This document shows, in pieces, positions 3,828-5,965 of a DNA stretch of 6,498 nt. The DNA is from a virus (taxonomy: Duplodnaviria; Heunggongvirae; Uroviricota; Caudoviricetes). Every line of letters starts with the position of its first letter. The stretch's first letter is position 1. Position numbers and translations under genes: made by a program. The notes under the pieces are model-generated. The model was not told the origin of the DNA, made no database searches, and saw only the letters and a list, made by a program, of their open reading frames with translations. The stretch lies in IMG/VR virus record IMGVR_UViG_2579778894_000010. One strand, written 5' to 3'.

Positions 3828-4028
3828 TTATCCATTAGATTTTTCATAAAGCTCAGGTTTAAATGGCAACCGTCCGCAAGTTCTATATGCAGCTTCTGCT
3901 GCACGTCCTTTTGGAATTAACTGGCCCGGACGGTTTCGCCACTGATAAACGGCTTCAGTTGTTATGCCGAAAAAAGCAGCAACTTTCTCAATACTGCCGA
4001 AGTAGCTTTCGATATCGTCAGTTGTCAT
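3828..4028 (-). CDS. cro: Cro-type repressor (P22 Cro-like)
   Basis: 66 aa, divergent from the cI-like gene. HTH segment FGSIEKVAAFFGITTEAVYQWRN resembles P22 Cro as I recall it. Strong SD GGAGGG 5-10 nt upstream of ATG 4028. Confidence 0.8.
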   Translation of the reverse strand: MTTDDIESYFGSIEKVAAFFGITTEAVYQWRNRPGQLIPKGRAAEAAYRTCGRLPFKPELYEKSNG

Positions 4029-4125
4029 ACGCCCTCCAAACTAAGTTTTGTTAGATGCTAATTACAAATCTATCTTTGGTCAATAAAAACTAAGATTACT
4101 TAGCGATTAAAGAAATGGTGCTCCT
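4029..4125. promoter_or_regulatory. divergent immunity promoter/operator region (oR-like; pR toward cro, pRM toward cI)
   Basis: Two 14-bp dyad sites of form CTAA-N6-TTAG: 4041-4054 (CTAAGTTTTGTTAG) and 4090-4103 (CTAAGATTACTTAG). Minus-strand candidate pR: -35 TTGACC, 17-nt spacer, -10 TAGCAT, placed so the 4041-4054 site overlaps the transcript start. Confidence 0.6.
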
Positions 4126-4752
4126 ATGGAAACGGTTGGTCAGCGTATAAAAGCTCTGAGAAGAGTTACCAGAACGTCCCAGAAAGAATTGGGTAAATTT
4201 TGTGGAGTAAGCGACGTTGCTGTGGGGTACTGGGAGAAAGACATCAATACCCCTGGCGGGGAGGCACTTTCGAAATTAGCGAAGTTCTTCAATACGTCAA
4301 TAGATTACATTCTTTACGGTGCTGAGTTTGAAGGCAAACTCGTCACAAACATGCGCAGAGTTCCTGTAATATCGTGGGTTCAGGCTGGGCAGTTTACTGA
4401 GTGCAGGGCAGCAGAAGTGTTTAGTGAAGTGGACAAGTGGGTAGATACATCATTAAAGGTTGGTGATAACTCATTTGCATTAGAGGTTAAAGGTGACTCC
4501 ATGACTAACCCTAATGGCCTCCCAACAATACCAGAAGGCGCAACAGTGATTGTAGATCCAGATGCAGAACCTCGTCATGGAAAAATAGTCATCGCTCGAC
4601 TTGATGGAACAAACGAAGCTACAGTAAAAAAATTAGTCATCGATGGCCCTCAAAAGTTTTTAGTGCCATTAAATCCTCGGTATCCCAACATCCCTATCAA
4701 TGGTAATTGCCTTATCATTGGTGTAGTCAAAGGAGTTCAATACGAACTCTAA
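4126..4752 (+). CDS. cI: cI/C2-type prophage repressor (XRE HTH plus S24 LexA-like autopeptidase domain)
   Basis: 208 aa. N-terminal HTH (QKELGKFCGVSDVAVGYWEK); C-terminal S24 signatures: catalytic Ser in GDSM, Lys in EATVKKLV, and a cleavage-site-like AG; overall resembles P22 C2. Confidence 0.9.
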   Translation: METVGQRIKALRRVTRTSQKELGKFCGVSDVAVGYWEKDINTPGGEALSKLAKFFNTSIDYILYGAEFEGKLVTNMRRVPVISWVQAGQFTECRAAEVFSEVDKWVDTSLKVGDNSFALEVKGDSMTNPNGLPTIPEGATVIVDPDAEPRHGKIVIARLDGTNEATVKKLVIDGPQKFLVPLNPRYPNIPINGNCLIIGVVKGVQYEL

Positions 4753-4764
4753 GACCTCTCTTCT

Positions 4765-4797
4765 CTAACTAAGGCACCGAACCAAGAAAAGTTTGGT
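4765..4797 (+). terminator. rho-independent terminator downstream of the cI-like gene
   Basis: Stem CACCGAAC (4765-4772) / GTTTGGTG (4781-4788), 8 bp with one G-U, 8-nt loop, followed by TTTTCTCTT. Confidence 0.55.
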
Positions 4798-4824
4798 GTT
4801 TTCTCTTGTCATGATAACTAAGTT
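4796..4824 (+). promoter_or_regulatory. candidate pL/oL-like element: operator copy overlapping a sigma70-like promoter
   Basis: AACTAAGTTAAGTTAGAT (4806-4823) matches the oR site AACTAAGTTTTGTTAGAT (4039-4056) at 16 of 18 positions. It sits inside -35 TTGTCA (4796-4801), 17-nt spacer, -10 TAGATT (4819-4824) on the plus strand. Confidence 0.4.
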
Positions 4825-4917
4825 AAGTTAGATTTTATATCAAAGATAACGAACAGGCAGGACGCCCACGAAGTAGCCGCCTGGGGCATATGAAGTCCAG
4901 GATGATTCGTTAGCAAC

Positions 4918-4940
4918 AAAAAAGCGCCCTACAGGACGCT
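4918..4940 (-). terminator. rho-independent terminator for the minus-strand orphan gene
   Basis: On the minus strand: AGCGUCC-UGUA-GGGCGCU stem-loop (7 bp, one G-U) followed by U6 (plus-strand A-run 4918-4923), about 40 nt after the stop at 4980. It is strand-specific: the same position is a C-A mismatch in plus-strand RNA. Confidence 0.5.
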
Positions 4941-4979
4941 TAGCTCTTTAACAATCTGGATATCCACAACAGTAGTAAT

Positions 4980-5471
4980 CTACAGATTGCCGTTAAGTTT
5001 TCTGGACAACTCCTCAATGGATGGAGGCGATACGTAATCCGGATTTTTATTCATCAGAAACTTATTTTCACAGTGGAGGCACCTGCTTTTATGAAAAAGC
5101 TCATCTTCGCTAACCGGGAATGGTTGAAGTATCGATACTATCTTTTGTCCAAAACATTTTGGGCAAAGATGCATGGTTATGCTGCCACCGTTCACGATTA
5201 CCTCCTTCGAGTATACAAAAGTACCCGACTCAAGTTGGTTAAGGATATAGCCTTCCGTCTGAGCCTCAAAGTTTTCGAATTCTGCAATTTTAGCTTTGAG
5301 AGAAGCATTTATTTCTTGATAAGAGCCCACCAGTTCAACGAGAGACACGCATTCGCGCTGAATAGACGCAAGCTTTGAGTTCAGCTCACCAATAGCCGCA
5401 TTTACTTCAGCTTGAGTTTTTGCCTCGTTCATTAGTTTTGCAATCTGGGCTGTTTCACGAATAGCCGTCAT
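4980..5471 (-). CDS. orphan coiled-coil / C4 zinc-ribbon protein (about 163 aa); candidate moron
   Basis: Predicted start ATG 5471..5469 (MTAIRETAQIAKLMNEAK...); the track ORF extends to 5759 but the extra N-terminal 96 codons look like non-coding read-through. N-terminal half is heptad-like and Ala/Glu/Lys-rich; C-terminal half has CPKC-x21-CLHC. By eye it is AT-rich and convergent with cI. Alternative GTG start at 5495. Confidence 0.6.
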   Translation of the reverse strand: MTAIRETAQIAKLMNEAKTQAEVNAAIGELNSKLASIQRECVSLVELVGSYQEINASLKAKIAEFENFEAQTEGYILNQLESGTFVYSKEVIVNGGSITMHLCPKCFGQKIVSILQPFPVSEDELFHKSRCLHCENKFLMNKNPDYVSPPSIEELSRKLNGNL

Positions 5472-5509
5472 TGCTGCCGTTAATTCAGCGATCACATTGA
5501 ATACTCTTA

Positions 5510-5555
5510 TTGTTGTTGGGGATATCCAGATTAACCGAATCCTTGTTGTTGGGGA
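5510..5555. repeat. two exact 13-bp direct repeats (TTGTTGTTGGGGA) spaced 33 bp, upstream of the orphan gene
   Basis: Copies at 5510-5522 and 5543-5555, lying 40-85 bp upstream of the predicted start at 5471. Confidence 0.6.
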
Positions 5556-5782
5556 ATAACCAGGTCCACCTCGCCTGATGTGGCTAAAAGCAGGCACATA
5601 ACAGCTAAGTATTTTCAACCAGAGAGAATCCTTAGCGTTGTGGTGAATGCGGCTCAGCGCACGCGGGTTAAGGTTGAGGCTGACAGTCGACCTTCTGTGG
5701 ATACCCACCCGCCTGGTGTGCAACCTTCGCCAGGCACCGGGAGGCACCCGGCACCACAACTTTATGCTGTGTGTAGTCCTGG

Positions 5783-5828
5783 CGGTACCAGTTTGTACCC
5801 TTGCTTCCGGCTGGTACCGTCCTTTTTT
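5783..5828 (+). terminator. terminator-like hairpin followed by a T-run (plus strand)
   Basis: Perfect 9-bp stem CGGTACCAG (5783-5791) / CTGGTACCG (5811-5819), 19-nt loop, then TCC TTTTTT (T-run 5823-5828). Confidence 0.45.
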
Positions 5829-5829
5829 G

Positions 5830-5916
5830 CAAAACAGAGAAGAGCATCACCGGACGACGGGCTCATAACCCAATCCATCCGGGCGGCTGCCACCGCAGGT
5901 GTTCTTCTCTGTTTTG
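5830..5916. repeat. 14-bp perfect inverted repeat enclosing a 59-bp GC-rich segment
   Basis: CAAAACAGAGAAGA (5830-5843) and TCTTCTCTGTTTTG (5903-5916) are exact reverse complements; the enclosed sequence contains further short stems such as CCGGG/CCCGG. Confidence 0.55.
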
Positions 5917-5965
5917 TGGAGAAACCAACCGACCTTGCAGGGTCGATATGATGAGGAGCAGCAAA

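Follow-up and report, generated by a model that had tools for sequence, protein, structure and literature searches.

Two exact copies of a 13-bp direct repeat, TTGTTGTTGGGGA, lie immediately upstream of a minus-strand gene in the DNA studied here, a 6,498-nt stretch (hereafter the window) of the Caudoviricetes virus record IMGVR_UViG_2579778894_000010 in IMG/VR, comprising a lambdoid immunity region in flipped orientation. The two repeats (5510-5522 and 5543-5555) are the cores of two tandem units of ~33 bp, which are followed by a conserved domain at 5566-5595. We put the probability at roughly two in three that the repeats and this domain together form a bidirectional control module, homologous to, but a sequence variant of, the region with the sieB promoter and sas in phages P22 and lambda. 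In P22, the sas antisense RNA spans both units and the 3' domain, so that one strand of the module encodes this RNA and the opposite strand provides the promoter and leader of sieB.

The repeats and their counterparts in P22 and lambda

The 13-mer occurs exactly twice on the plus strand of the window with a start-to-start distance of 33 bp, as the sequence-only reading had reported, and no further copy with up to two mismatches is present in the window. At the same tolerance, dinucleotide-preserving shuffles contained a mean of 0.23 matches and reached two or more in 4 of 200 cases. Similarity between the units extends with one gap over ~33 nt, TTGTTGTTGGGGA-TATCCAGATTAACC versus TTGTTGTTGGGGAATAACCAGGTCCACC, a two-unit similarity that was not called by Tandem Repeats Finder. 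A third copy of the unit, inverted and degenerate, is located at 4953-4978, at the opposite end of the minus-strand gene. Both units recur with the same 33-bp spacing in dozens of related prophage loci that have diverged flanks, and the repeats are conserved together with the gene, a conservation that the sequence-only reading had proposed to check.

The minus-strand gene (4980-5495, 171 amino acids), delimited as an open reading frame and by comparison with homologues, has its start corrected here to a GTG at 5495-5493. This GTG and the codons that follow it are conserved in homologues with synonymous changes, and an in-frame ATG at codon 10 is not conserved. A Shine-Dalgarno sequence, AAGAG (5504-5508, minus strand), also conserved in homologues, stands 8 nt before the GTG and 1 nt from repeat copy 1, and the repeats are thus directly upstream of the gene with the corrected start as well. 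The gene had been called an orphan, a description that does not hold, as its product, which has an N-terminal coiled coil and a C-terminal CxxC...CxxC motif, matches phrog_1244 (E = 1e-59), a family of unknown function. No Pfam or PADLOC assignment was obtained for the product, nor a match to ToxN/AbiQ/CptN or other defence proteins.

Modules with two units fall into sequence types, each of which repeats its own motif: GTTGTTGGGGA in the window (type T1), CTGTAGGGGT (type T2), GACTGTGGAA, TGCATTGGGG and TTGTGGGGG. The T2 module precedes sieB in 135 phage records. In lambda, two CTGTAGGGGT-type units and the 3' domain are found at ~34,427-34,480, just upstream of sieB (34,482-35,036), which is antisense within the PL operon right after N, and P22 has the same arrangement of T2 units and 3' domain before sieB. 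The P22 GenBank record (NC_002371) annotates a sieB promoter at 29,690-29,720 and a 'sieB RNA start site' at 29,727. Mapping this annotation onto the P22 sequence places the -35 hexamer TACCCC in the upstream unit and TAAACT 17 nt further on in the linker, with the +1 nucleotide being the A immediately before the downstream unit CCCCTACAG, the 7th nucleotide after the -10. The P22 sieB promoter region and the sas antisense RNA were reportedly described by Ranade and Poteete in 1993.

The P22 sas RNA is a 127-nt antisense RNA defined by RNA-seq in a 2026 study (PMC13397905, Table 2), and it pairs with sieB mRNA, switching translation from SieB to Esc (reviewed in PMC12197685; PMC7067206). Its span covers the complement of the sieB start codon, the anti-Shine-Dalgarno sequence, hairpin 1, the linker, hairpin 2 and the entire CCACC...CAGGC domain. 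Window positions 5494-5617 align with P22 sas at 83 identical columns of 134 (62%). None of 500 shuffles attained this score, and the 3' domain is identical at 31 of its 39 positions.

The likeness to P22 and lambda extends to the layout. The gene is a moron (an accessory gene inserted between conserved phage genes) lying antisense inside the early-left (PL) operon, as sieB does in both phages, and the element lies upstream of the PL-antisense gene and overlaps its translation start. The parts follow the same order, namely the CCACC..GCCUGA.GUGG..AAAAG.CAGGC domain, unit 2, an A/T-rich linker, unit 1, the Shine-Dalgarno sequence and the start codon. In each case a G-rich motif occurs as a direct pair spaced 33-34 bp apart, and the promoter predicted in the window has the geometry mapped in P22, with its -35 within the upstream unit, its -10 between the units and its +1 where the downstream unit lies. 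The window differs from P22 and lambda in its motif (GTTGTTGGGGA rather than CTGTAGGGGT) and in its target, which is phrog_1244 instead of SieB/Esc. Its cassette follows PL directly with no N gene in between, and this variant adds a boxA of the rRNA operon (rrn) type and a long-range helix, both of which are absent from P22 and lambda.

Predicted roles on the two strands

On the strand of the gene, a position weight matrix (PWM) scan predicts a -35 hexamer TTCCCC at 5551-5556, the position homologous to P22 TACCCC, and a -10 hexamer TAATCT (TAnnnT) at 5528-5533, 17 nt after the -35 in the A/T-rich linker, where P22 has TAAACT. The mRNA start predicted from the P22 sieB RNA start site falls at 5521-5523. 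Four relatives (L024, L025, L087 and L179) have TATAAT at the -10 position of the window. In 45 of the 61 modules other than the single-hairpin ones, the PWM scan, made before the P22 annotation was known, gave its highest-scoring minus-strand promoter at this offset, compared with ~7% of shuffles. The sequence-only reading had seen no clear sigma70 promoter here and had read the spacing of the repeats as three helical turns; neither view was upheld, as the P22 sieB promoter and start site map onto the same geometry with TTCCCC-17-TAATCT in register, and the 33-bp repeat spacing is explained by the distance from -35 to +1. Read on the minus strand, copy 2 extends from within the predicted -35 hexamer over the first 8 nt of the spacer, and copy 1 reads UCCCCAACAACAA, the predicted first ~13 nt of the mRNA of the gene, abutting the Shine-Dalgarno sequence.

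On the plus strand, a sas-like antisense RNA of ~120 nt is predicted at 5491-5612, its ends set by homology to P22 sas. It would consist of an anti-start codon, anti-Shine-Dalgarno sequence, unit 1, linker, hairpin 2 and the 3' domain. Transcription of this strand would come from the predicted PL promoter TTGTCA-17-TAGATT (4806-4834, plus strand, found by promoter scan). OL operators overlap this promoter and share the ACTAAG..TTAG motif of the OR operators. The predicted PL reads rightward, antisense through 4980-5495, across the repeats and an STnc100-like element, and then into yfdP and yfdQ. Both strands of each repeat therefore appear to be used, as judged for copy 1 by repeat search and the P22 sas alignment, and for copy 2 by repeat search, folding, covariation and P22 homology: in plus-strand RNA, copy 1 lies within the 5' half of the sas-like RNA and within the 3' arm of the long-range helix, and copy 2 supplies the 5' arm and GGGG loop of hairpin 2 (CCU.GUUGUU-GGGG-AAUAAC.AGG, 5541-5564).

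Hairpin 2 was identified by folding and covariation and is independently predicted by RNAalifold. Its mean energy is -9.5 kcal/mol on the plus strand versus -6.0 kcal/mol on the minus strand, and all 16 variants compared favour the plus strand. In an alignment of 25 distinct T1 variants, 98.7% of the hairpin 2 cells are paired, and standard pairs occupy 97.3% of the cells in the tested helices compared with 30-48% in slid controls, and 4 pairs are changed on both sides versus 0.3 in shuffles (0 of 500). One stem pair of hairpin 2 is G.U in 23 of the 25, and another is U.G in 12, U-A in 9 and C-G in 3. Because this variation in pairing makes use of G.U, hairpin 2 exists only in the plus-strand RNA. 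The conserved 3' domain, CCACC-uc-GCCUG-au-GUGG-cuaaaag-CAGGC (5566-5595), delimited by module alignment, folding and the P22 sas alignment, can form two helices that are alternative or pseudoknotted (S1, 5566-5569/5580-5583; S2, 5572-5576/5591-5595). A pseudoknot in this domain is a candidate structure, for which both compensatory pairs derive from a single lineage (L084).

Taken together, these parts suggest how the module may operate. On the minus strand, copy 2 would contribute the -35 and the start of the spacer and the linker the -10, so that transcripts would begin with copy 1 as a C/A-rich stretch of the 5' untranslated region (UTR) directly ahead of the Shine-Dalgarno sequence and GTG. 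On the plus strand, transcribed from the repressor-controlled PL, the same DNA would encode the sas-like RNA, the 5' half of which (anti-start codon, anti-Shine-Dalgarno sequence and copy 1) would be complementary to the translation-initiation region of the mRNA. Copy 2 would form the hairpin with the GGGG loop, followed by the conserved 3' domain and, since the units are repeats, the loop of hairpin 2 would also be complementary to the extreme 5' end of the target mRNA. When PL fires, on induction or in a superinfecting relative, the antisense RNA would pair with the mRNA of the gene and stop its translation, a shut-off that would mirror the action of sas on SieB. We infer from sequence that this promoter/antisense arrangement, and its effect on the gene product, apply in this phage. 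The retention of the same motif in both units has two candidate causes, a tandem duplication of the promoter-proximal unit, or the benefit of a second loop-presented site nucleating pairing with the mRNA 5' end.

Several results weigh against this explanation. The promoter, start site and antisense RNA were shown in P22 and derive from that phage only, whereas those of the window are predicted by homology; homology, conservation and RNA-type covariation are what was obtained here. The promoter match in the window itself (score 5.9) was reached by 1302 of 2000 shuffles and is no better than chance, and a consensus promoter scan found nothing at the repeats upstream of the gene. Because its own match is not above that of shuffled sequence, the window promoter rests on homology, and the consistent promoter position across variants is partly a matter of shared ancestry. 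Unlike its P22 counterpart, unit 1 of the window forms no local hairpin, and single-sequence folds of 5500-5610 showed no stability beyond that of shuffles for the two strands (z = 0.06 and 0.87), all structural evidence for the sas-like RNA being comparative. No plus-strand promoter was seen by eye just upstream of 5491. Finally, the gene product has no SieB domain (PF14163) and no evident Esc-like second product.

The sequence-only reading had also raised, as a weak possibility, a type III toxin-antitoxin system, in which the ~33-nt repeats would constitute an antitoxin RNA neutralizing the downstream product. Its RNA-level component has merit, since both units are transcribed in the P22 sas antisense RNA, but the antitoxin identity fails. 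Two direct units of ~33 nt upstream of a small gene of unknown function, and on its strand, do recall such systems; there are, however, only two units with 13 exact bases, no terminator separates the repeats from the gene, and ToxN/AbiQ/CptN and PADLOC searches gave no match. The same units also precede unrelated genes and, by P22 homology, only one unit would be transcribed on the strand of the gene. We therefore regard this identity as extremely unlikely.

Operator, rRNA-leader and mobile-cassette alternatives

The central proposal of the sequence-only reading was cooperative binding by a regulator. In a fuller version of this explanation, a regulator would control the gene by binding cooperatively to the two repeats and the inverted third copy along the same helical face, perhaps with formation of a DNA loop. 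We consider this unlikely. The 13-mers are identical and their flanks differ, and each module type keeps its own motif in both units, as would be expected if a factor specific to the type were bound. However, there is no apparent candidate for such a protein, and the units occur in phages with different repressors (for example L001 versus the window) and before several unrelated genes. The copies at -35 and +1 occupy the classic position of repressor sites and the third copy lies beyond the gene, but the 13-mer lacks dyad symmetry, the window's own operators have a different motif (ACTAAG..TTAG), and the spacing of the repeats is accounted for by promoter geometry. Variation in unit 2 preserves pairing, including G.U, and not sequence. 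Moreover, relatives with a single hairpin have a related G/U-rich loop once, so the paired motifs could reflect repeated duplication and not a shared factor. Of the original proposal, a cis-regulatory element in the sense of a conserved feature of the upstream region of the gene is retained, but its reading as an operator array is less supported than a module of the sas/sieB type.

The T1 variant carries additional parts at the far end of the gene. A boxA, GCUCUUUAACAA (4943-4954, plus strand), occurs once in the window as an exact match, agrees in all 12 nt with the boxA in the rrnB leader of E. coli and lies ~110 nt past the predicted PL on the transcribed strand. Next to it, a hairpin at 4922-4941 serves both strands, being followed on the minus strand by a T-run as the intrinsic terminator of the gene, and standing on the plus strand just upstream of boxA in the position of the rrn boxB. 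The 5' arm of the long-range helix, AAUCUGGAUAUCCACAACAGUAGUAA (4953-4978, plus strand), begins within the last bases of boxA, and its 3' arm is UUAUUGUUGUUGGGGAUAUCCAGAUU (5507-5532, plus strand); the former was found by inverted-repeat search, and the latter by inverted-repeat search and duplex analyses. The arms are 26 nt long with 85% Watson-Crick pairs, or 25 of 26 positions paired when three plus-strand G.U are counted, and the duplex has an energy of -31.3 kcal/mol.

These features are constant among relatives, as 22 of 22 distinct T1 cassette contexts have a boxA at the left border and a complementary arm pair. Arm duplex energies range from -17 to -39 kcal/mol versus -7 to -17 in shuffles, and the duplex favours the plus strand in 20 of 21 contexts, with a plus-strand advantage of -2.3 kcal/mol versus +1.1 in shuffles. 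In three relatives (L005, L096 and L002) the arms have been replaced in concert. Only a 13-bp core of the helix is universal, and it reaches no further into copy 1 than its last 3 nt, with further pairing through the 13-mer being partial (45-68% Watson-Crick per position). The resemblance to E. coli rrn leaders lies in the succession of a hairpin, the identical 12 nt of boxA and, immediately after, the 5' arm of a long-range helix that closes a long untranslated segment, and the 5' arms of rrnB and the window both contain ACAAUCUG. The helix of the window encloses the antisense of a 0.5-kb protein gene, whereas that of rrnB encloses 16S rRNA, and it is shorter and weaker (-31 versus -54 kcal/mol).

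On this basis, the repeats could be parts of an rrn-like device acting on the PL transcript and not of a gene-silencing system. BoxA would bring about Nus-dependent read-through, and the helix would loop out the cassette for cutting by RNase III in the manner known for 16S rRNA, with copy 1 as its 3' arm and copy 2 as a boxC-like hairpin. The boxA identity and shared order of parts, the unbroken occurrence of boxA and strong arm duplexes in T1 contexts, the concerted arm replacements, the greater stability of the plus-strand duplex and the lack of an N-like gene between PL and the cassette all fit such a device. As an account of the repeats themselves it is nevertheless improbable, as the universal core reaches only the last 3 nt of copy 1 and pairing of the remainder is partial. 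P22 and lambda carry the two units without boxA or helix, and therefore the units do not need rrn-like parts. Base composition also reveals no Rho-loading (C>G) signal in the antisense cassette RNA. The rrn-like parts are best seen as an addition to the sieB/sas-type module in the T1 variant, with Nus binding and RNase III cleavage proposed by analogy: boxA and the helix are probably a supplement in a phage whose cassette is not preceded by an N gene, allowing Nus-dependent read-through of the antisense segment, and perhaps RNase III processing at the long-range helix.

Two other phage systems were compared and set aside. The put RNAs of HK022, antiterminators that act in cis, are located shortly after PL and PR; in common with the window, HK022 lacks N and has a two-hairpin RNA early in its PL transcript. 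The module motif is, however, absent from HK022 positions 24000-32000, there is no sequence or motif match, Rfam reported nothing there or here, and put is not antisense to a gene start. The mEp 'Nus-dependent' phages belong to a different phage group.

A further explanation treats the repeats as remnants or termini of a mobile gene cassette, either terminal inverted repeats accompanied by a subterminal copy, an arrangement known from some transposons, or recombinase sites, with no regulatory role. Related phages have a different minus-strand gene between the same flanks, and their homology with the window is lost at 4959 and regained at 5512, both points lying exactly within the inverted repeats. 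The genes carried are very diverse, some loci (L073, L104 and L163) have tandem cassettes, and the arms, if merged, would make a perfect 18-bp palindrome, AATCTGGATATCCAGATT. We consider this explanation very improbable, given that no transposase or recombinase is associated with the cassettes, no target-site duplication was found, and no empty site with boxA joined directly to the units was present in the ~340 loci examined. Homologous recombination in the conserved flanks suffices for the breakpoints. In addition, G.U pairs are tolerated between the arms on one of the strands, and in P22 the units have been shown to act as promoter and antisense RNA.

Some further features of the repeats concern small RNAs (sRNAs). 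The mRNA-sense (minus-strand) reading of both copies, CCCCAACAACAAUAAGAG, has five A-R-N triplets in a row, the motif bound by the distal face of Hfq, and includes CAACAACA, complementary to the G/U-rich R1 region of GcvB. In addition, the left arm of the helix contains CACAACA, the published GcvB target consensus (PMC4104026). A GcvB target mimic, an Hfq ARN motif or a CsrA site in the 5' UTR is put forward as a side idea only. An anti-sRNA like AgvB was rejected for the C/A-rich minus-strand reading, as AgvB sits elsewhere, downstream of PR', and Rfam gave no AgvB here.

Module types, cargo and the surrounding region

Two scans of viral contigs yielded 103 distinct versions of one architecture. 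On the plus strand, each consists of the start codon and Shine-Dalgarno sequence of a minus-strand gene, then one or two hairpin units, then CCACC-NN-GCCUGA-N-GUGG-NN-AAAAG-CAGGC. The gene slot behind the module in lambdoid prophages holds at least 34 unrelated protein families, most with unknown function, among them SieB (PF14163), a BssS-family protein and an LprI-like protein. The units of the window precede 5 of the 34 families called as open reading frames. Part of 5480-5620 is matched in 2,099 of 5,426 complete E. coli genomes, with at least 80% covered in 746. The taxonomic range of the module is poorly sampled; a contig scan for GTTGGGGA-N20-26-GTTGGGGA was too permissive and gave mostly chance matches, and among the matches listed only those in E. 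coli and Scandinavium lactucae were relevant. Over 5490-5625, the only Rfam covariance-model match was a CrcZ fragment (6 bits, E = 7.7).

In 37 modules with a single hairpin (L004, which is SfV, L141, L129 and others), the CCACC...AAAAG domain reads on the minus strand as a good extended -10 promoter. This promoter, TT(c/a)ACC-16-TGgTATnnT, has a mean score of 9.4 versus 6.8 in shuffles and occurs at the same offset in 32 of the 37, and the PWM scan places it one unit further upstream than in other modules. From their sequences, the two-unit modules look like tandem duplications that shifted the promoter one unit downstream. Three loci (L073, L104 and L163) have two cassettes in series, each with its own module copy, the upstream copy in L073 being without the CAGGC arm, which suggests that serial cassettes accumulate by recombination between modules. 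In two relatives with other module types, L174 (plus strand, ~8142) and L177 (minus strand, ~10967), GCTCTTTAACAT is followed by a hairpin, GCUCAGAG-UAAAUU-CUCAGAGC, an element that resembles a conventional nut site (boxA and boxB).

The breadth of the module across unrelated cargo, its sequence types and the rRNA-leader mimic of the T1 variant appear to be new. A tentative extension, which we think possible yet doubtful, is that dozens of accessory or defence genes with no relation to one another use the module as a typed, portable 'plug-in socket', combining a lysogen-active promoter with a PL-linked antisense off-switch, with the types as specificity groups and a variant without N that has acquired the rRNA-leader mimic. 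If so, the phage, or a relative with the same socket type, would silence the cargo upon PL firing, and the types GTTGTTGGGGA, CTGTAGGGGT, GACTGTGGAA and others would be antisense specificity groups, comparable to immunity groups. The boxA and helix would then recruit Nus factors and carry PL transcription through the cargo, and the helix would loop out or excise the cargo, possibly freeing the antisense RNA.

The module would give a concrete reading to a common unannotated non-coding stretch of E. coli genomes that no Rfam family covers, and it could be used as a landmark for prophage accessory or defence genes in the PL leader, beside the repressor or, as in lambda and P22, after N. It also suggests a possible general rule, that such genes carry a built-in antisense off-switch tied to the lytic promoter of the phage. 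The boxA/helix variant is a testable case of an operon kept running across a gene inserted backwards in its leader. Lambdoid morons were reportedly described by Juhala et al. in 2000 as units that each have their own promoter, gene and terminator. The cassette of the window resembles such classical morons as an accessory gene that the prophage would express from its own predicted promoter, with its own intrinsic terminator (4941-4922), and in being inserted between conserved phage genes; it differs in that its predicted promoter is a common conserved module that would also encode an antisense RNA and has many unrelated genes behind it.

Elsewhere in the window, an O-like replication gene contains four 15-bp iterons (CAGATTTTGACGGGT-like, 2522-2585), presumably the replication origin, at which an Rfam match to mir-5880 is spurious (30.7 bits versus a gathering score of 97). 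The cro open reading frame (3828-4028, minus strand) is followed by the OR operators (4039-4103), identified as ACTAAG..TTAG repeats, and by a cI-type repressor gene (4126-4752, plus strand), supported by its open reading frame and a protein match. Just after the repressor gene, at 4780-4806 (plus strand), a terminator-like hairpin, ACCAAG-AAAAG-UUUGGU followed by UUUUCUC, abuts the predicted PL -35.

Downstream of PL, positions 4849-4911 (plus strand) form a conserved leader hairpin, AACGAACAGG...GAUGAUUCGUU, that is common to phages with different repressors. In the cassette-less relative L213 this hairpin lies directly before the CCACC...CAGGC domain, and SfV is homologous to the window over 4848-4911 and then again from 5566, a pattern that, as judged from sequence comparison, marks the insertion slot of the cassette. 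In two other cassette-less relatives (L151 and L171), the same PL promoter and operator are directly upstream of the conserved 3' domain.

Right after the module begins an STnc100-like sRNA element (RF02076; 5607-5830, plus strand), which scores 40.3 bits, below the gathering score of 47 (E = 2.8e-6), and is, apart from the spurious mir-5880 match, the only element given by a whole-window Rfam scan. It ends in a terminator-like hairpin and U-run at ~5781-5830. In a 2026 preprint, STnc100 is linked to the PasD sRNAs found in pathogenic E. coli; this literature was set aside as an explanation of the repeats, as it concerns the neighbouring element instead. The sas-like RNA and the STnc100-like element could be parts of a single transcript from PL. 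A long hairpin of high stability (5823-5923, plus strand; arms 5830-5853 and 5893-5916) separates the STnc100-like terminator from yfdP, and the region 5780-5925 folds at -71.6 kcal/mol (z = -7.0 versus shuffles).

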